This document shows, in pieces, positions 1 through 27,032 of a DNA stretch of 32,000 bases (its first letter is position 1; each line of letters starts with the position of its first letter). A program made the position numbers and the translations under genes. The stretch is from Candidatus Brocadia sp. (GTDB lineage Bacteria > Planctomycetota > Brocadiia > Brocadiales > Brocadiaceae), in the NCBI GenBank assembly GCA_021650915.1, contig CP091279.1, positions 2,100,001 to 2,132,000 of the forward strand. Reading direction: 5' to 3'. Below the pieces are notes generated by a model. It made no database searches, had not been told where the DNA came from, and saw only the letters and a list, made by a program, of their open reading frames with translations.

Positions 1-504
1 ATCCCTGATATTGCCTTATCGGATAACGTTTGCACTGGCCGATTGACCCTGATCGAGATAGAAACGGTTCATGATTTGTTAACGGTACTTCACGAAAAGC
101 TCAGGGATAAACCATGCGATGCAATTGTGCATGCCATGGCAGTGCTTGATTACACGCCGGAAACGTCCCGGAGCGATAAAATACGTTCCGATGCGGACAA
201 GATGGTAGTCACTTTTGTAAAAACCCCTAAAGTTATAAAATTCATACGAAAGTTGTGGCCTCATGCCTTTTTAATAGGGTTTAAGTTAGAGGTGGGTCTA
301 TCACAAGAAGCGCTTGTTGAGAGGGCATATACCTCTCTGCAGGAAAATGGAGCGGACTTGGTGGTTGCCAATAATCAGGATGAGGTTGCACGGGACAAAC
401 ACCAGGCCTATCTGGTAAATACACAGAAGCAAATTGTATCTTATTGTAAAACCAAACAAGACATCGCAAAAGCCCTCGTAACGGCAATCTCCAACTACTT
501 GTAG
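1..504 (+). CDS. coaB: Phosphopantothenate--cysteine ligase (CoaB/DFP domain), C-terminal part; 5' end lies outside the window
   Basis: Frame 1 is open from base 1 to TAG at 502-504. The translation (..AIVHAMAVLDYTP..KIR..LIGFKLE..GADLVVANN..) matches the C-terminal half of the DFP/CoaB fold by recall. Confidence 0.55.
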   Translation: MPDIALSDNVCTGRLTLIEIETVHDLLTVLHEKLRDKPCDAIVHAMAVLDYTPETSRSDKIRSDADKMVVTFVKTPKVIKFIRKLWPHAFLIGFKLEVGLSQEALVERAYTSLQENGADLVVANNQDEVARDKHQAYLVNTQKQIVSYCKTKQDIAKALVTAISNYL

Positions 505-651
505 CCAGGAAAAGGCGCTTTCCCGATAGACGCTAGCACGGACAGCTCTGCCCAACGAAAAACATCCTTCCGGATTGAGGATGGATTACGAGGTACTGCA
601 AGGGGGCCAGGCCGCTATAATCCTTATCGAACAGATGGTTTTAAAGAAATC

Positions 652-728
652 GTAACACTTTAGTTCTTTGAAAAATTAACAAGCGATTTTGCAAGCAAAC
701 CCAGAAGTCGTTTTCACCATAAGGGCAT
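652..728. repeat. Terminal inverted repeat (left copy) of the IS66-type element
   Basis: By-eye alignment to the reverse complement of 3044-3116. The same first ~27 nt recur at both ends of the MITE at 26865-27015. Confidence 0.9.
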
Positions 729-1758
729 TTTTTGCGCTTGCCAGAAGATTTTCCACTGGATTGATTCTTTGTAATTCAGCAGAACGAAGCAGAGACATGA
801 GGATGGCCTGTGTCTTAGCGCCATCCTCAGAGCGGTTCTGCTGTGAGACCTTTCTGGTCAATACTGGCTTTCGCATCTGTTGCTCAGCATGGTTATTATA
901 GGGACTGACATCCTCATGTTCCAGGAACGTAAAGAGTTCCTTCGTCTGGCCATGATACCGATAGGTATTGCCCCGTTTTGCACTGCCTTTGGTTTTTCCT
1001 ACACGGAGCCAATTAGCTGCCTGATAGCAAGTGCCTTGAAATCGCGCGGTATCAACAAAGGTCTCCGCCAAATACACGGGATGTCCGTAGACAGCTTCCC
1101 AGTCATTTGACAAACGCTTGAGGGCAAGGGATAATACCTTGGATGCAAGGTGTTTGACCGTAACCCAGGGGGGAATGAGGAATCGCACGTTACTGGCAAT
1201 TAAATGCAAGCGGGTACGTTTGGTGGTCTCATCCCATCCGATGAAACGGTCACGGTCTTTGACCTTCCATGCTGCGCTTGCCCATCCAAGACAGGCAACG
1301 ACCTGATTGCCGATATGTACGATGTGCCTGATGTGTTCGCCAACAAGCCGGGGACATCCGAGGTAGTGATAGTGATAGAGGAGATAACCCCAGAGGTAAC
1401 TCTCTTGAGGGTCTTTTACCACCTGGATCGTCGGGATTTCATACCCGGTGATAGTGCCTCCCAGTGTGCTTTTGACAAAAAGGGGTATCTGATCAAATAT
1501 CTTAGGTTTCAGATTGTTTTTTGGTCGTATGCGGCCTGGAAGCGCTACCAGGCCCTGTTCTTCCAATCGCAGAAGGAGGTCTCGTGCCGCGTATTCTTTC
1601 AGCTTGCCATTGGGCTGCACCCAGTTCCAACTTTTGCAAAGTTCACGGGAAATATAACTCCGCCCTTTGAGAAAATAACTATCAATGAGCGCCTTGATAA
1701 AGGCTATATCGTCTGTATGCAGTTTCCGTGAACGGTATTGGAATAGTATAGGCTTCAT
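676..1758 (-). CDS. DUF4338-like protein fused to the C-terminal tail of an IS66-type transposase (no DDE core)
   Basis: 360-aa ORF. aa ~120-272 carry YHYLG..IGW..N.RFLI..LAS..DW..YLAETFVD..F.GTCY.A.NW..G.T.G, which I recall as the DUF4338/DruA-type domain. aa ~276-340 (LFTFLEHEDVSPYNNHAEQQMRKPVLTRKVSQQNRSEDGAKTQAILMSLLRSAELQRINP) match the IS66 transposase C-terminal motif (TNN.AER..R....RK.S.G..S..G......SL..T......NP). The ORF end runs into the left IR. Confidence 0.7.
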   Translation of the reverse strand: MKPILFQYRSRKLHTDDIAFIKALIDSYFLKGRSYISRELCKSWNWVQPNGKLKEYAARDLLLRLEEQGLVALPGRIRPKNNLKPKIFDQIPLFVKSTLGGTITGYEIPTIQVVKDPQESYLWGYLLYHYHYLGCPRLVGEHIRHIVHIGNQVVACLGWASAAWKVKDRDRFIGWDETTKRTRLHLIASNVRFLIPPWVTVKHLASKVLSLALKRLSNDWEAVYGHPVYLAETFVDTARFQGTCYQAANWLRVGKTKGSAKRGNTYRYHGQTKELFTFLEHEDVSPYNNHAEQQMRKPVLTRKVSQQNRSEDGAKTQAILMSLLRSAELQRINPVENLLASAKNALMVKTTSGFACKIAC

Positions 1759-1850
1759 AAGCAGGTTCCTTTTCTCTGAAGCCTTTTATACCACAAAGGG
1801 AAAACTGACGCCAGCTTTTTTTGTATCTTATTAATCGTCTCATAATAATA

Positions 1851-3010
1851 TTAACATACTGCAGCATACCTCGTTGTTTTATTATTGAAATAAGCACGCA
1901 CTCTATCCTGTGTTTTTTGGATAAACCGCAAATGCTTTATTACTGCCCTCTGTAATTGCTTTGGATCGGTAATAATTTGTCGACCAATTGCATTATTCTT
2001 AACATCATTCCAAACGCACTCATCAGGATTCAACTCCGGTGAATACGGCGGCAAAAAGAATAACCGAAAGCGTTCCTTTATGGATTCAATAAACTTGGTA
2101 ACACTACGCGCCTTGTGTGCCGGATGGCCATCAACAATCAAAAAGACCGTACGACTGCTACCATGAATCAGTCGCTTGATAAACTTGATAAACTGCCGCG
2201 CTCCGACACACCCTTTCACCACCATAAAGCGAAACTCGCCTTGCGCACTCACCGCCGAGATCATGTTCAGCCCAAAACGTGCACCGGTACTACTCACAAT
2301 AGGAGTCTTCCCTTTCACTCCCCAGGTAGTACCTGCATGATGATCTGATCGAACTCCTGCTTCATCACCAAAAAATATCTGTGCCTTCATCTCCTGTGCC
2401 ATCTTTTTGATCCTGGGATACTCCTCATTCAACCACTGTTGGACTTTTTCAGGCCTTTGTTGGTAAGCACGCCATAGAGGACGTTGCGGTGTTAGTCCCA
2501 TTCGGGCTAACAGACGGCATACGGATGCCTTGCTCAGTTTTACACCAAAACGCTTATAGATCAACTCCCCTATCATTTTTGATGTCCACAACGCAAAGGT
2601 AAATTTCAGCTGGAGAGGGTTTTTATCGACTATCGTCTTGTATATCCATTGCAGTGCCTTGGCATTATTAAGGGTCTCATAATTGTATTGATTCGTCGTA
2701 TGCTTTCCTTCTCCAATATTGAAGCGCTAAACGGACAGCTTAATGTGTGTTCTATTATGAGACGATTAATAAGCCTGGGTTGGCGTCCTCCCCGTTTACG
2801 GGCATCCAAGGCTCCCCATCCACCACGGTTATACCGCGCCAACCAACCGTACATGGTTACACGGTTTATACCTATGGCTTTTGCCACTATCTCGGGACTT
2901 TGTCCTTCTTGCACACTATTTACCGCACGCTTTCTCAACTCGGTAAGCGTTTTGTGATCTAACCGTCTGGCATCACTCTTTTTCATAAATACATGATACC
3001 ATATTGGCAT
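1851..3010 (-). pseudogene. IS630-family (Tc1/mariner-type DDE) transposase, split by a MITE insertion
   Basis: ORFs 2630-3010 (HTH N-terminus) and 1851-2591 (DDE core, ..FLPPYSPELNPDECVW..). Deleting 2671-2768 (MITE plus one TA) restores one frame: ..[42 protein letters not shown].. Confidence 0.85.
2671..2766. mobile_element. 96-bp MITE derived from the IS630 ends, inserted at a TA inside the IS630 transposase gene
   Basis: Termini AGGGTCTCATAATTGTATTGA (2671-) and the reverse complement of the right end, ATCGTCTCATAATAG (-2766), match the IS630 IRs. TA lies at 2669-2670 and 2767-2768. Confidence 0.8.
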
Positions 3011-3043
3011 TACTATGTCAATACTATTATGAGACGGTTAATA

Positions 3044-3116
3044 ATGCCCTGATGGTTAAAACGCCTTCTGGGTTTGCTTATAAAATCGCTTATTAATTTT
3101 TTAAAGAACTAAAGTG
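3044..3116. repeat. Terminal inverted repeat (right copy) of the IS66-type element, 4 bp short of the GTAA terminus
   Basis: Its reverse complement (cactttagttctttaaaaaattaataagcgattttataagcaaacccagaag..) aligns to 656-728. Confidence 0.9.
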
Positions 3117-4432
3117 GGTTCTTCTCCCAATTAGTCAATAAGAATTGAGAAGAAAGTCCTTTAAATCATTGAAAAGAGTGGACATTTGGTGTTTCCTATA
3201 GATAGATATATACCGTTATAGAAACTATTTACAGGAGACCAGCAATGTCCCCATTAAGTATATTACCATATTTTCCTTTTCAGCGGGTAAGAATTACGAA
3301 GCAAACTGTTTTTCCTGATGCTGAGATATCTCAGCTTACTGCCGTGCCCGATGAACGATTTCGTCCAATATGTCATGCGTGTGGCAGCAAAGCACAGCGC
3401 ATTTACCGTCATGACAAACGATCTTTGCGGGATCTGAATCCTGGTTCAGTTCGCGTACGGATAAATTGTTCGTATCGTAAGATTGCCTGTGAGCCATGCA
3501 ATCGAATCGTAGTTGAAGACTTGGGTTTTTTTCAACCCTACAGTCGTGTTACGCATCGTTTAGCAGCGTATATTCACGAATTGTGTAAAGTGTTAACCGT
3601 AACCGAAGTTGCAAAACATTTTGGAATTAACTGGAAAACCGTAAAAACCATCGACAAGTTTTTTCTGGAACGACAATACGCGCAGACAGATTATCAGAAT
3701 CTTCGCATACTGGCGGTAGACGAAATCTCTGTTAAGAAGGGACAGCGCTATTTGACCGTTGTTCTGGACTATCTGAGTGGCCGCGTAGTCTGGGTGGGAA
3801 AGGAAAGAACAAAAGAAACCCTGGGAACCTTCTTTGCGGGTATGACAGAGGAACAAAGGCAGGCGCTTGAGGCCATTGCCATGGATATGTGGGATCCTTA
3901 TATTCATGCAGTAAAAAAGCACGTGCCTCATGTTAAGATAGTCTTTGACCTGTTTCATGTGGTTTCAAGTTTTGGTAAAGTTATTGACAAGGTGCGAAAT
4001 GCTGAATACCAAAAAGAGTTCAAAATATCTTTTGTTAAAAAACAAACGAAATATTCGCAGGAAAAAACATCGAGAACATCTCAAACAGCTCTTGTCGCTT
4101 AATGAAACCATAAATACCGTTCTGATTCTTAAAGATAAGCTCAAACATATTTGGACCTATACCTCACGGACGTGGGCGAGAAAAGCCATTGATGAATGGA
4201 GCCTCTTAGCGAAAACGCTCAACTATTCCGTCGTGAATAAATTTGCAAATATGTTTACAAAATACAGCTACGGAATCTTGAATCACTGCGATTATAAAAT
4301 TCATACCAGTAAACTCGAAGGGGTTAATAATAAGATCAAAGTTATCAAAAGAAAAGCTTATGGATTTCATGACGAACGGTACTTTTCATTAAAAATTATA
4401 CAAGCTTTTGCAAACTAATTGGGAGAAGAACC
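3117..4432 (+). mobile_element. ISL3-family insertion sequence (1316 bp) with perfect 18-bp terminal IRs; no target-site duplication
   Basis: GGTTCTTCTCCCAATTAG (3117-3134) is the exact reverse complement of CTAATTGGGAGAAGAACC (4415-4432). The 8-bp flanks ctaaagtg and gatttttt differ. Confidence 0.9.
3245..4418 (+). pseudogene. ISL3-family transposase, frameshifted
   Basis: ORFs 3245-4102 and 3945-4418 together give a zinc-finger N-terminus, HTH and DDE_ISL3-like core (..LAVDEISVKKGQRYLTVVLD.., ..KLEGVNNKIKVIKRKAYGF..). The frames switch at the A5 run 4011-4015 (NAEYQK / KSSKYLLLKN). Confidence 0.9.
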
Positions 4433-4566
4433 GATTTTTTTTATATTGTTCCTGAATTTTTTGGTAGAGTAGAAAAAGAGAGACTTGGTTAAAGAAAAAG
4501 CCCTCCAAATATGGTAAAAAATAGTTTTGATACAAGAAACTAAACCATAAAGAGAAGGAGGGCTAT

Positions 4567-5142
4567 ATGGGAGCAACCCCATGCACAGATGGTATCACAA
4601 TAGAATTTGGTTGTCAAATTCGGGTTGAATTAAAGGACGACAGCCTGGAGTCGATTCTCAAGGCATTTTGCAAGATACTGCCGGAGATATTAAGGGATTT
4701 TATTCAGAAGATCGTGGTTGGTTTTGGTGAGAGTGCGATGGCGCAATCACGGAAGCCATTTTGCTGCGACGAATGTGGGAATGACAAGGAGTTTATCTGG
4801 AAGACGAGGCATGGAAAAGAGACGAAGATACTGACAGTCTTTCAGTGGTTGAGATTAGAGCAGTTGCAGGTGCAGTGCAAGAGGTGCGGTCATAAGATGT
4901 ATATAACGCGAAAGCTTCTGGGGATGGAGCGGATGAAGCGAATACCACCGGAGACGTATCGGAGGCTTGGTCTGGTAGGGTCGTTAACGACCTACCGGGT
5001 GGCGAAGAAAATCGTGTCGATGTTTGGCTGGACCGTAGACAAGATGACGATATGGAAATCGGTACAAAAGACGGCAGCAGAGATAGATTTTCAACTCGAC
5101 GAGAAGGGACTTCCCTGGGAGAAGCAGACGGGACAGGGGTAG
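4567..5142 (+). pseudogene. Transposase N-terminal fragment (zinc-ribbon type; family not assigned, possibly ISLre2/ISKra4-like), truncated at the ISAs1 insertion
   Basis: 191-aa ORF with CCDECG..CKRCGH zinc-ribbon spacing and an HTH-like region; no catalytic domain follows. It ends about where the ISAs1-type IR begins (~5150). Family assignment is weak. Confidence 0.45.
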
Positions 5143-6802
5143 GGATTAAGCAGGGCTACGTCAAGCATAAACGCAAGTACTGACACGTAAAAAAGAAAAG
5201 GAATAAACTGACTTTTTCAAAATGGTTCTTGTATAATAGTTTCATGAACCATGAAGAGACACGAAAAAGCGCAGTACCATCGGGCGGTCTTCACGGCATT
5301 GAAGTAAGACCCATCCGTCGGGAAGAACGAACCCGATGGGACGAACTCATGCGCCAATACCATTATCTTGGGCTTCACTCTCTGATCGGGGAAAGCATCC
5401 GGTATCTGGCGATACACCAGGGACAATGGCTTGCCTTGATCGGATGGTCAGCAGCGGCGCTCAAATGCAAGGTACGAGACCGCTGGATAGGATGGCCTTG
5501 CTTTCTTCAGTACCGGCGGTTGTCTTTTGTTGCCAATAACAGTCGTTTCCTGATCTTCCCTCATGTCCGTATACCCAACCTTGCCTCTTATGTCCTCGCC
5601 CGGAATCTCAAACGATTATCCCAAGACTGGCAAACCATCTATAACCATCCGATCTATCTTGCAGAGACCTTTGTCGATCCGCGCTCTTTCAAGGGCACCT
5701 GTTACAAGGCCCAGGGCTGGGAGTTTCTGGGATATACCCGCGGGTTTGCAAAATGCGCTCACCGGTATTATTCCCACAACCAACCCAAGATGGTCTTTGT
5801 TCGTCCTGTTCTTCCCGATGGGAAAAGAAAACTCTCTGAACCGTATCTCGAAACCCGAAACACCCCAAAGGAGGTAAAACCGATGCGCCTTTCTCTGAAA
5901 GATGCTGAATCACTGAAAGAACGATTATCTCAGATTCCTGATCCCCGTCTATCACGCGGCAAACGACACAGAAAGCTCTCCGTCATGACCCTTTCTCTTT
6001 GCGCCCTTCTGTGTTCTGCCACAAGCTTTGCCGCTATCGCTGAGTGGGCAAAATCATGCAGTCAAAATATGCTCAAACGTCTCGGCTGTCGTCTGAACCC
6101 AAAGACCGGCATCTATGAACCTCCCAGCGAACCTACCATCCGCAGGTTCCTGCAAGACGTTGATGCCGAAGCGGTAGATACGGCCCTCTACGGCTGGCTT
6201 CAGTCCCTTGCCGGAGAAGATACTGCCCTTGCCATTGACGGGAAGACCCTCAAGGGCGCATACCAGGAAAACGGGCAGAAAATTCATCTCCTCTCTGCCT
6301 TTCTCCAGCAAAAAGGCGTCGTTATCGCCCAATGTCCCGTTGACCAGAAAACCAACGAAATCCCAACGCTGAAAACCCTCCTTGACCCCTTAGACATCAA
6401 GGACAAGGTGGTCACTCTCGATGCCCTGCATACCCAAAAAGAGACGGCGCGGTATCTCGTTGAAGACAAGAAAGCCGATTACCTCTTTACCGTAAAAGAC
6501 AACCAACCCACTCTCAGACAACATATCGAAGACCTCCGCCTGGTCTCTTTTCCCCCCTCAGCACAAAACCATCGACAAACATCACGGACGCATTGAAATC
6601 CGCCAGGTCTGGACCAGCGCCGATTTAAACCATTACCTTGCATTCCCCTTGGTTGGACAGGTCTTTTGTATCCACAGAAAATTTACCTACCTCAAATCCC
6701 AAAAAACAACCGAAGAAACGGTCTATGGCATTACCAGCCTTACGCAACAAAAGGCAGACCCTGCCCGCATACTCCGCTTGAACCGGGGACATTGGAGTAT
6801 TG

Positions 6803-8808
6803 GCGTGCCTTGAAGTATGGGATACCTGAGTGGTTGAAAATATCACCTCTGCGAGCCTAAATCCTCGTAGAGAAGTTTGTACCTATGCGTATACAAAGGA
6901 GCAATCCGTGTGCGTAGAAGGATAGCGTATTCCCGTGAGGGGTATGACGGAGTTACGAGGTACAGACGACCTTTTGGGGTGTATGAATATGGCGTGTTAG
7001 TTCGTGCCAACTGCCCTTTCTCAGTAAAGCACTGACAAATGTCCTTGTTGGAGATGATGCAAGCGATTCGGTGAAAACATCTCTGGATAATGCGTTTGAA
7101 CATACATCACGAAGGGAAAAGGGGTAATCCATATGACCGGGGGAGGACTTACGTCTTGGGAAGAAATTCCCTAACAGCGAGGTATAAGGGAAATCCGAAA
7201 TCCAAGCTGTATGAGATGGTGACGGACGACTGGCTCTCACAGGTCTGTCTTTGAAGTCGTCAGCAGCGCTCATAATAGTTTCTGGTGTAAGCCAGGAATG
7301 AAGGGGCATAACCGTAGTGGAGTTGATGAAACGTGGTAGATTGAATACGTTCCATGAGAAAAGAGACTCTTTGCATGGGCAAGTAGTAGCAAGAGACTCT
7401 CTTGTTTTGCCTCTGTCAGGAGGAATCTCGACTCAGGAAACACGATTGACAAGTCTATTATCCGGAATCAATCAAAAGGAACATATCGGGAGATGCTTAA
7501 GTATCATTCTTTAAGAGACAAGGTATTCAGTCTGAGAAACCTTTATGCGGCTTTTGGGCACGTAAAGAAGAATAAAGGCAAGGCTGGTCTCGACAGGGTA
7601 AGTATTAAGCAGTTTGAAAGTGACCTTGAGAATAATCTACAAGCTATTCACAAGGAACTGAAAACCGCCATATACAACCCTGCGCCCGTCTTAAGGGTCT
7701 ACATTCCCAAAGGCAGGCATGACAAGAGACCTCTTGGCATTCCCATTGTCAAGGACAGGGTAGTACAGCAAGCGTTCAGACAAATCATAGAGCCAATATT
7801 CGAGAAAGAATTCTCGGATAACAGCTTTGGATTTCGTCCAAACAGATGCTGTCATGATGCTATCAAACGGATTGAACAGTATAAGCAGCAAGGGTATCGG
7901 AACATTTTGGACGCCGATATAAAGGCGTTCTATGACACCATACCTCATAAGCTTATCATGAACTCCTTGCGTGAGAAAATCGCTGACGGATGGGTGTTGA
8001 ACAGTATCGAGAACATGCTCAAGGCAGGGGTCATGGAGGACGGCATCGTGCATGAGACAAATCAAGGCACTCCGCAAGGAGGCGTCATATCTCCCTTGCT
8101 TGCAAACCTTATCGGTGACATCATCGACAAGGAGCTTGAAAAGGCAGGATATAAATTTGTCCGCTATGCCGATGACTTCGTTGTCATGACTAAAACGAAA
8201 GAAGAACTCCCTGCCGCCCTTCAGTACGTCAAAGAAATCATCGAAGGGAAACTTGAAATGAAGCTGAGCGAGGATAAAACCAGGCTCACCAACTTCAAAC
8301 GAGGCTTCCGGTTTCTCGGATATAATTTCATGGGCAAGAACAAGGGTGTAAGCATGAAATCCCTGGACAAACTCAAGGACGCCGTCAGAGACATCACCAA
8401 ACGCACACAAGGCGTCAACCTGCAAGCCGTCATTGATACATTAAATCCTGTCATAAGGGGACATGTCAACTATTTTCGGCTGGGCAATGTACAAACGGTA
8501 TATCGCTCGTTAGACTGCTGGGTACGCATGAGACTGAGAAGTTTCAAGTTTTCGAGAAAATGGAAAACTGACAACAAACGTTTCCCGGTACACCGATTCT
8601 TTAAGATGGGGTTACTCTCATTTGAAAGAGAATTTCTTAAGGCACGTGCAAAGGCATGATAGGTTACTTTTCTCTGCTCCAGAGCAACACTATGGGGTCG
8701 CTAACTACGGGAAAGCCGTATGGTTTAAAAGGATACTTTGTCACGTTGTCCAAAGTATCTGGCGACGATTGGGGGTTGGAGGCGATTCGCCTCCTTCCTA
8801 CCAGCTAA
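6803..8808 (+). mobile_element. Group II intron (~2.0 kb); boundaries uncertain by about 2 nt at each end
   Basis: It encodes an RT/maturase ORF with ~690 nt of 5' non-coding and ~150 nt of 3' non-coding structured sequence. A domain VI-like hairpin at 8771-8802 has a bulged A at 8800. Flanking exons rejoin in frame to the ISAs1 motif GHWSIENSLHYVRDV. Confidence 0.85.
7493..8659 (+). CDS. Group II intron reverse transcriptase/maturase (RT plus X domain, no DNA-binding/endonuclease domain)
   Basis: 388 aa with RT blocks (..RPLGIPIVKDRVVQQA.., ..FGFRP.., ..DADIKAFYDTIPH.., ..GTPQGGVISPLLANL.., YADDFVV) and maturase-like LNPVIRGHVNYF. The protein ends soon after, with no HNH motif. Confidence 0.95.
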   Translation: MLKYHSLRDKVFSLRNLYAAFGHVKKNKGKAGLDRVSIKQFESDLENNLQAIHKELKTAIYNPAPVLRVYIPKGRHDKRPLGIPIVKDRVVQQAFRQIIEPIFEKEFSDNSFGFRPNRCCHDAIKRIEQYKQQGYRNILDADIKAFYDTIPHKLIMNSLREKIADGWVLNSIENMLKAGVMEDGIVHETNQGTPQGGVISPLLANLIGDIIDKELEKAGYKFVRYADDFVVMTKTKEELPAALQYVKEIIEGKLEMKLSEDKTRLTNFKRGFRFLGYNFMGKNKGVSMKSLDKLKDAVRDITKRTQGVNLQAVIDTLNPVIRGHVNYFRLGNVQTVYRSLDCWVRMRLRSFKFSRKWKTDNKRFPVHRFFKMGLLSFEREFLKARAKA

Positions 8809-9289
8809 AACAGCCTCCATTACGTTCGTGATGTCACCTTTGATGAAGACCGCTCCCCGATTCGAACAAACCATGCACCCAGGGTTATGGCCTCCCTCAA
8901 AAATTGCATCATCAGCATCTTTCGCTCACTGGGGAGAACCGCTATCGCACAAACTCTTAGAAATTTAACCTACCAACCTCACCTTGCCCTGAAACTCCTT
9001 CGCTTATAACGTCTCTTTCTTCCCCTTCCCCCCTTATTTCCCATGCCCTTCGAGGCACATGGGGATTCCCTTGTCTTTTATGCCTTTTTTTGTCATCTTT
9101 TCGTGTCTTTGCTCGTTTTTCCCTCTTCAAACCCCTTCTTTCCCTTGCCTTGCCACTCTCTCTTTTTTTGATCATCATGACTTTGACGTTACCCTGCCGA
9201 AAAAATCCTTGAATTGGCAATATTTTGTCATTACTATACTATCTGATTTCCCGTATTAGGCCGCCAAATATAATAGATCGTTCTGAAAC

Positions 9290-26759: not shown

Positions 26760-26864
26760 TTTTCCCATCAATAACTCCTCGGTAGTTCATACTTCTCCAT
26801 CAGTTAAAACCTTACGTGCCCGTTTGAAAGTCACTTTTGGCGCCTCCAACGGGTTACATATTTC

Positions 26865-27015
26865 GTAACACTTTAGTTTTTTGAAAAAGTAGGGGCGAAG
26901 CATTTGCCATCTTGGGGTGTGAATACATTTATACCAATTTATGGCAAATGCTTCGCCCTTACACAGTGCGGCAACATCGTTATTATGGTAATTTTTCAAA
27001 AAACTAAAGTGTTAC
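26865..27015. mobile_element. 151-bp MITE with IS66-type GTAA termini and a perfect 8-bp target-site duplication
   Basis: Ends are GTAACACTTTAGTTTTTTGAAAAA (26865-) and its exact reverse complement (-27015). An internal second IR is GGGCGAAGCATTTGCCA. Flanking CATATTTC occurs at 26857-26864 and 27016-27023. The termini match those of the element at 652. Confidence 0.85.
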
Positions 27016-27032
27016 CATATTTCAAGTTACGA

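Follow-up and report, generated by a model that had tools for sequence, protein, structure and literature searches.

The element at positions 652–3116

We have analysed a stretch of 32,000 nucleotides from Candidatus Brocadia sp. (contig CP091279.1 of assembly GCA_021650915.1, positions 2,100,001 to 2,132,000 of the forward strand), referred to here as the window. At positions 652–3116, inverted repeats of the type found in the IS66 family of insertion sequences (IS) enclose a long open reading frame (ORF) with a DUF4338 domain. This element, its full-length relatives and the DUF4338 family are the subject of what follows. The parts of the element are:

652–732, minus strand: terminal inverted repeat at the transposase-tail end; its tip, GTAACACTTTAG, is intact and is the same in L001, L011–L013, L160 and L161
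676–1758, minus strand: 360-residue in-frame fusion ORF, joining part of the DUF4338 gene to an IS66 transposase tail
933–941, minus strand: deletion junction, with the sole remaining copy of the 9-nt repeat AGGAACTCT (codons K273-E274-L275), which has two copies in full-length relatives
1759–1830, minus strand: 5′ leader of the fusion ORF, contiguous with 3044–3116 in L001 and L168 and separated from it here by an IS630 insertion
3040–3116, minus strand: inverted repeat at the ORF-start end, missing its terminal 4 nt (GTAA on the element strand)

The two repeats pair over 77 nt (656–732 with 3040–3116) at 90% complementarity, and the chance expectation for their 24-nt core in shuffled sequence is 0. 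An earlier note on this DNA had described imperfect terminal repeats of ~75 bp, as we also find, and had stated that the ends start with GTAA; this holds for the 652 end (GTAACACTTTAG) but not for the other, which is without its last 4 nt beside an ISL3 element. The stop codon of the fusion ORF (676–678) lies inside the 652–732 repeat. When the IS630 insert is subtracted the unit is 1,256 bp long, matching the compact ~1.26-kb unit that the note proposed, and it is seen uninterrupted and 99% identical at the same locus in the Candidatus Brocadia assembly L001 (GCA_029760155.1). No 8-bp target-site duplication was found around the window copy. Among the features by which the IS66 family is recognised, this copy shows the GTAA repeat and lacks both a passing match to the transposase model and the duplication. 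Neither tnpA nor tnpB is present in the window-type element, where the DUF4338 gene occupies their place.

Residues 1 to ~275 of the fusion product come from the DUF4338 gene and comprise a Mom-like GNAT core preceded by a helical domain that, from the structural model described below, is predicted to be DNA-binding-like; residues ~273–360 are the final ~88 residues of an IS66-family transposase. The Pfam profile DruA (PF14236) matches residues 107–278 (E = 2.9e-36; 125.6 bits, cut-off 27). Of the 284 positions of PF03050 (DDE_Tnp_IS66) the match takes in only the final 60, at residues 256–315, and of the 387 in the NCBIfam model transpos_IS66 (NF033517) only positions 287–382, at residues 248–340 (62.6 bits against a cut-off of 180). 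Since both IS66 matches are confined to the C-terminus of the model, there is no DDE core in the window ORF. A single 360-residue ORF with a DUF4338 core and no DDE region had been read correctly from the sequence, and the profile matches foreseen for it, PF14236 and an IS66 tail, were both obtained, except that the tail is matched by the C-terminal end of PF03050 and not by PF13817 (DDE_Tnp_IS66_C).

Full-length relatives with two genes

The closest homologues of the 360-residue protein are proteins of 292–293 residues that contain DUF4338 only, and the similarity spans residue 1 to ~276. They are encoded in full-length elements (L003–L016 and many others) in which this gene, orf1 (292/293 residues), is followed by a gene for an IS66 transposase of 456/457 residues. 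The two genes overlap by 14 nt, and the GGAGG ribosome-binding site of the transposase gene lies within the 3′ end of orf1. The transposase has the zf-IS66 and DDE_Tnp_IS66 domains and scores 248–249 bits, above the NCBIfam IS66 equivalog cut-off of 180. The elements end in GTAACACTTTAG or GTATCATTTTAG (GTAA/GTAT ends) with inverted repeats of ~75 nt; perfect 8-bp duplications surround the full-length copies L003/L005, L006, L007 and L008, and full-length elements are present several times within one sample. Given the complete transposase, the terminal ends, the duplications and the multiple copies per sample, these relatives are genuine IS66-family insertion sequences with two genes. Their length is 2,362–2,369 bp in the more distant relatives (L003–L013) and 2,408 and 2,422 bp in two parent copies that are 99% identical to the window copy, the latter two values being probably due to assembly errors. 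Sixty genome loci share at least 50% identity with the query and have sequence downstream of the gene; in nearly every one of them an IS66 transposase is the neighbour.

Elements of the ISBst12-like subgroup of IS66 carry a transposase only. The relatives described here resemble that subgroup in a transposase that passes the IS66 model, in GTAA/GTAT repeats, in 8-bp duplications and in the absence of tnpA and tnpB. They differ from it in the additional upstream and translationally coupled gene for a 292-residue DUF4338 protein and in their unusually long repeats (~75 nt); furthermore, the window copy has no DDE core, and a second, four-gene version of the DUF4338 element exists. In this version, found in L100 and L108, the gene order is tnpA-like, tnpB (PF05717, E = 4.5e-29), DUF4338, tnpC. 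The element of L100 lies at 35–3588 (3,554 bp) between repeats of 29 nt and that of L108 at about 2670–6040. DUF4338 therefore coexists with TnpA and TnpB and is an addition to them, not a substitute. Like DUF4338, the IS66 accessory proteins TnpA and TnpB (PF05717) are encoded by small genes upstream of the DDE transposase in one element, but they have no homology to it.

A deletion between 9-nt repeats

The restored 1,256-bp unit aligns to L014, L011, L016 and L161 in two blocks, 5–975 and 967–1256, which overlap by 9 nt and are separated in the parent by about 1.15 kb. The overlap is AGGAACTCT, which occurs once in the window and twice in L161, L160, L016 and L011, with a spacing of 1,153–1,166 bp. 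L160 and L161, parent-type copies from anammox metagenomes, are 99% identical to the window copy on both sides of the gap, and residues 267–359 of the fusion are 72% identical to residues 363–455 of the L011 transposase. As these alignments show, a deletion between the AGGAACTCT repeats took away ~1.15 kb, by which orf1 lost its last 17 codons and the transposase gene its first ~366, and joined the remainder in frame to leave a unit of 1,256 bp with both ends kept and no catalytic core. The junction, at 933–941, is where the earlier note had put it (near nt 931–945). Different and non-equivalent internal deletions are found in other relatives (L002, L060, L071, L032), so that decay of this kind is common and is not aimed at one site. 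The 90% cluster of the fusion protein also includes intact 293-residue proteins from Ca. Brocadia sp. (several per genome), B. sinica JPN1 and Jettenia caeni.

The unit resembles known non-autonomous deletion derivatives of insertion sequences and miniature inverted-repeat transposable elements (MITEs) in that it keeps both repeats, has no working transposase, is colinear with its parent and is present at more than one locus. It is unlike them in keeping a long intact ORF and in the absence of a visible duplication at either locus. We conclude that 652–3116 very likely derives from an IS66-family insertion sequence with two genes and is itself non-autonomous and dead, and we are highly confident of the structural and evolutionary account of the window copy as a whole.

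Two other accounts of the fusion have to be weighed against this one. The earlier note had considered that the DDE core of an IS66 element was replaced by an incoming DUF4338 cassette, and the window copy taken alone does give that impression, with its IS66-type ends, IS66 C-terminal tail and DUF4338 body. More than 100 relatives, however, hold DUF4338 together with a complete IS66 transposase inside the same repeats, and a single deletion between 9-nt repeats, with no foreign junction, separates the copy from a 99%-identical parent. DUF4338 is thus the native, separate upstream gene of an element with which the copy is otherwise colinear, and the replacement reading is refuted. The note had also named a finding that would count against it, namely that residues 1–275 are an ordinary part of the transposase in this subgroup; they do belong to the ordinary element, but to its accessory gene and not to its transposase.

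The other account takes the 360-residue fusion to be a functional, selected chimera, for example an inhibitor or regulator of transposition that retains the C-terminal helices of the transposase together with the DUF4338 enzyme. In none of the five sampled copies, which come from two loci and differ by 5–22 nt, is the ORF broken, and the variable codons, 8 synonymous to 8 non-synonymous, are more often synonymous than expected under neutrality; the numbers are small, however, and confounded by gene conversion, and do not decide on selection. Functional parents may indeed have contributed the variation through gene conversion (L168 is nearer to L167 than to the window copy), and an in-frame join has a one-in-three chance in any case. 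The junction falls within a β-strand (strand 273–279 of the model) and the new sequence KELFTFL retains the alternating pattern of KDLYLYPL, but a nearly invariant C-terminal segment is lost (L277, Y278, P279, L280, F284, R285, R286, L288 and D291). In addition, the window ORF is cut off from its upstream repeat by the IS630 insertion, the fusion is confined to one 90% cluster from anammox samples, and the deletions of the other decayed relatives are not equivalent to this one. A selected chimera is, in our view, very unlikely.

The derivative at a second locus

The same derivative, with an identical junction, is found at two loci with unrelated flanks: locus A, comprising the window, L001 and L168, and locus B, comprising L166 and L167. 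It lies at 5852–7107 in L001 and at 2353–3607 in L166/L167 (a unit of 1,255/1,256 bp), and in these three both tips are intact. The 360-codon ORF is preserved in all five copies, and at columns 692 and 1013 of the alignment the five have states in common that are different from those of all six 99%-identical parents. Elsewhere in the window there is a small element with the same termini:

26865–27015, strand not assigned: 151-bp MITE whose termini are likewise GTAACACTTTAG, set between the two copies of a perfect 8-bp duplication, CATATTTC (26857–26864 / 27016–27023)

Because the 1,256-bp unit is present at two unrelated loci, it would have moved at least once by means of a transposase supplied in trans from full-length copies, which exist at 99% identity in anammox bacteria. 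The matching ends and the duplication of the MITE indicate that a matching IS66-type transposase has acted in trans in this lineage. The suggestion of the earlier note that the element is non-autonomous and mobilised in trans is supported by both observations.

An 8-bp duplication was found at neither derivative locus (the window, L001, L166 and L167 were checked), and this weighs against mobilisation: the deletion between the repeats could have occurred independently in two full-length copies already resident at these loci, in which case the derivative itself never transposed. The 9-nt repeats are kept in all the close parents, so the deletion is repeatable. Against independent origin stand the shared states at columns 692 and 1013; moreover, two 9-nt repeats with 1.15 kb between them make a weak substrate for deletion, the deletions of other decayed relatives lie elsewhere, and the MITE shows that mobilisation in trans works in this lineage. 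We consider recurrent deletion unlikely and favour, as the probable course of events, one deletion followed by mobilisation of the derivative. Exchange of flanks by recombination between loci A and B was considered as a cause of the missing duplications and was rejected, as the matches that it predicts are absent.

The flanks of the derivative in L001 and L166/L167 are A/T-rich, like the duplications of the relatives (e.g. AAAAATTC in L008), which hints at a target preference.

DUF4338 and transposases across the family

A profile search of 1.84 billion representatives gave 9,779 DUF4338 clusters at E ≤ 0.001. To see the gene in its surroundings we used the best 80 of at least 596 confirmed DUF4338 loci in metagenomes, which came from at least 600 pattern matches. 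In 72 of the 80 a transposase lies directly downstream on the same strand, while 5 have no downstream room and 2 no transposase. The 72 partners are 58 IS66, 9 IS1182-like, 2 IS630, 2 ISAs1 and 1 ISKra4-like (E = 1e-41) transposases, the IS1182-like calls being made at an NCBIfam E of about 1e-19 that is below threshold. Inverted repeats enclose DUF4338 and transposase together in the IS1182-like L091 and L095, with the same repeat at the same spacing, and in the IS630-like L141 (34 nt, 94%).

Fusions give a similar picture. Among the best 150 members, 41 are long (≥400 residues); all 41 have the DruA domain, and the additional Pfam domains are ISAs1-type in 14, DDE_5 (IS701-type) in 8, Tn5-type Tnp_DNA_bind in 5, IS66 in 3 and IS630-type helix-turn-helix in 2. 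One such fusion is in the window itself:

5229–6596, plus strand: second DUF4338-transposase ORF, 455 residues, with a DUF4338 GNAT core fused to an ISAs1-type transposase (DDE_Tnp_1_assoc + DDE_Tnp_1)

Its DUF4338 core is 46% identical to that of the 360-residue ORF (E = 1e-47). The ORF is truncated at both ends and has neither the N-terminal helical domain nor the last part of the DDE domain. The same architecture is seen in a Thiodictyon plasmid gene whose annotation reads "ISAs1 family transposase". In a neighbour-joining tree, which is without support values and indicative, DUF4338 groups mostly by partner family, with several switches.

Two points limit how far this pattern can be extended. 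The 80 metagenome loci are those most similar to the query (38–67% identity) and are not representative of the family of 9,779 clusters, and some DUF4338 genes stand alone with no transposase nearby (L078, L097, L098). The association of DUF4338, by linkage or fusion, with at least seven transposase families is strongly supported, and the idea in the earlier note that DUF4338 is a module repeatedly recruited by mobile elements agrees with it. Given its many types of transposase partner, DUF4338 behaves as a general transposon accessory.

Some further loci deserve description. In L088, L090–L092, L095 and L096 (e.g. L091, 221–3362) DUF4338 is followed by a protein of ~610 residues weakly like IS1182 transposases (67–69 bits in NCBIfam against a cut-off of 270, with no Pfam match above threshold), and the pair is enclosed by conserved repeats of 17–20 nt; these pairs may be an undescribed IS1182-related group. 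In L075, the Thiodictyon plasmid pTs485, positions 3339–8837 hold a standalone DUF4338 gene, an integrase and IS91 pair, and an IS4-family transposase between two DUF2235 fragments, which looks like a DUF4338 and IS4 element itself split by an IS91 insertion. In the window, just past the truncated ISAs1 fusion, there is a group II intron reverse transcriptase/maturase (RVT_1 + GIIM; 7493–8659, plus strand), and this intron may interrupt the fusion. The interval that separates ISL3 from the ISAs1 fusion has a 191-residue ORF (4567–5142, plus strand) with two CxxC pairs and no Pfam match, which may be what is left of a further transposase.

The fold of DUF4338 and its likeness to Mom

A model of the natural 293-residue protein was obtained with AlphaFold from an alignment of 98 sequences (pLDDT 92.3, pTM 0.84) and supersedes an earlier model of the 360-residue chimera with 34 close homologues, which was poor (pLDDT 55). 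It has an N-terminal three-helix domain (residues ~15–67), a basic linker and a GNAT-type α/β domain. The top structural match in the PDB is the Mom protein of phage Mu (8bv8_B, E = 2.4e-6, TM 0.59 on target), followed by many GNATs, and Mom-family proteins rank high among the matches in the viral models of BFVD. The structure prediction and fold search that the earlier note recommended have thus given a confident model closest to Mom. Profile searches of PDB sequences with DUF4338 found nothing useful. DUF4338 has been classed as GNAT by an independent group (PMC10853773).

Mom was recently shown to use Gly-tRNA(Gly) as its donor and to attach the glycine to the N6 position of adenine in double-stranded DNA (PMC13219725). 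Its active site consists of H58, Y59, R111, S124, D149, R151 and Y159, of which R111, S124 and R151 are essential, and alanine at D149, H58, Y59 or Y159 greatly lowers activity (PMC13219725). The equivalents in DUF4338, derived from a profile alignment and motif inspection on a weak underlying alignment, are H131, Y132, R192, S206, D/E236, R239 and Y245, respectively, and these are conserved in 92–98 of 98 diverse sequences. The two proteins share the GNAT fold and the motifs HY, R, S, F.D and G..YQA.N with the essential residues of Mom. They differ in that sequence identity is ~16%, DUF4338 has an added N-terminal helical domain, and DUF4338 is encoded in insertion sequences beside transposases and not in a phage late operon with Com.

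Several observations count against a close correspondence. The hhalign match to Mu Mom is weak (E = 0.013, probability 3.4) and one sequence long; the pairings of R192 with R111 and of R239 with R151 needed a manual shift of one residue; the window protein scores 19.4 bits with the Pfam family Mom (PF25680), below the gathering score of 27.1; and the essential helix-turn-helix-like insertion of Mom (175–209) has no obvious counterpart in DUF4338. The relative P0147 scores 29.6 bits, above the gathering score, and several other relatives carry a precomputed PF25680 match. At the level of sequence, the link between DUF4338 and Mom appears weak but real for some members.

Since Mom is the nearest structure and its catalytic residues are near-invariant in DUF4338, we would expect the product of orf1 to be a nucleic-acid-acylating enzyme that is produced along with the transposase, with DNA as the likeliest substrate. 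We put a Mom-like nucleic-acid-modifying activity at somewhat less than an even chance. As it is partnered with at least seven unrelated families of DDE transposase, orf1 might meet a need that transposons have in common, for instance the marking or protection of DNA, and not the recognition of the ends of one element; a role in transposition is a more tentative proposal than the activity itself.

DUF4338 could also be something other than a DNA modifier. It might acetylate proteins, either the transposase or one of the host; it might act on charged tRNA in the manner of TacT; or it might have no catalytic function and serve as a DNA-binding adaptor. The structures that rank next after Mom, at similar E-values, are acetyltransferases of proteins, aminoglycosides and polyamines, and TmcA, and, as stated in the Mom study, the GNAT fold alone is no predictor of substrate (PMC13219725). 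On the other side, Mom is the top PDB match and near the top in the viral models, the specific residue set of Mom is conserved and not the fold alone, a helical DNA-binding-like domain and DNA transposases accompany the enzyme in every case, and the near-invariant polar residues argue against a non-catalytic role. We regard such a different function as a real possibility, short of likely. The most far-reaching proposal is that DUF4338 is primarily a transposon-encoded, Mom-like DNA-modifying enzyme with an aminoacyl-tRNA or acyl-CoA donor, recruited repeatedly by DDE transposases of at least seven IS families, and that the DruA protein of the Druantia type I system is a borrowed version that gives the DNA mark; in this full form the proposal is doubtful.

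The BFVD matches to the Mom-like GNAT model also include several phage proteins of 400–700 residues with annotations as homing endonucleases or as endonuclease-like (e.g. A0A4Y5JUX8, I7KLM9, A0A8S5QH23). This class of domain may also accompany another kind of selfish DNA element.

Later insertions at the window locus

The window copy has been altered by further insertions:

1831–3041, minus strand: IS630-family insertion with a TA duplication (1829–1830 / 3042–3043), absent from the same locus in L001 and L168
about 2665–2772: MITE of ~100 bp with IS630-like ends (TTATTAAGGGTCTCATAAT / ATTATGAGACGATTAATAA), which splits the IS630 transposase
3117–4434, plus strand: ISL3-family element with 19-nt inverted repeats (GGTTCTTCTCCCAATTAGT) and a frameshifted transposase, which adjoins and truncates the window element

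The halves of the IS630 transposase around the MITE are ORFs 1851–2591 and 2630–3010, and the ISL3 transposase is split into two overlapping ORFs (3245–4102 and 3945–4418). No 8-bp duplication was found at the ISL3 element, 3117–4434. The flank past it does not match L001, which suggests that a rearrangement accompanied ISL3 at this locus. In L001 nothing further is inserted and the derivative still has its two tips; L168 has the same ISL3 junction as the window and no IS630; the window has ISL3, IS630 and the MITE inside the IS630 transposase gene. This series shows the order of events, beginning with the ISL3-associated loss of the 4-nt tip, followed by insertion of IS630 between the repeat and the ORF, and then of the small MITE into IS630. 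The window copy is no longer able to move. An IS630-family gene is also present in L001; that it is the IS630 of the window was rejected, as there is no DNA similarity and the two are different elements.

Druantia and the meaning of the family

PF14236 is named DruA, and NCBI records call several IS-borne relatives "Druantia anti-phage system protein DruA", so the 360-residue ORF might be taken for the remnant of a Druantia type I defence system. The likeness to the DruA protein of that system lies in the shared Pfam family, which covers the GNAT core of the window protein. Against this, neither the window protein nor P0002 is matched by the PADLOC DruA model at E ≤ 0.001, and that model has 407 positions compared with the 292 residues of the IS-borne proteins. 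There is no druBCDE context: the window has no DruB–E-like genes and no large helicase (DUF1998). The neighbours are insertion sequences (IS630, ISL3) and DFP, the relatives sit within IS boundaries, and IS-borne DUF4338 proteins are near-universally linked to a transposase. The chance that the ORF is a Druantia remnant is next to nil.

The Druantia name is found on IS-borne DUF4338 proteins in NCBI records such as P0041, P0097, P0277, P0301 and P0509. This naming is likely a systematic misannotation, and it can inflate or confuse counts of defence systems. A function of DruA was not found in the searched literature, and a preprint on YprA and Druantia is likewise silent on DruA itself.

Three results were not met with in the searched literature. 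The first is a large IS66 subgroup, in two-gene and four-gene forms, with a conserved DUF4338 gene; the second is that DUF4338 accompanies or is fused to IS1182-like, ISKra4-like, IS630, ISAs1, IS701-type (DDE_5) and Tn5-like transposases; the third is that the fold and conserved residues of DUF4338 point to the recently solved chemistry of Mom. The arrangement of DUF4338 with transposases is undescribed in the searched full-text literature, but it may already be catalogued in ISfinder or TnCentral. As a piece of DNA the window element is unremarkable, the debris of an insertion sequence; what is unexpected, and testable, is the pattern across the family and the link to Mom. The likeness to Mom provides a testable hypothesis for DruA. 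If DUF4338 is primarily a DNA-modifying enzyme of transposons, many insertion sequences would chemically mark or protect DNA during their life cycle.

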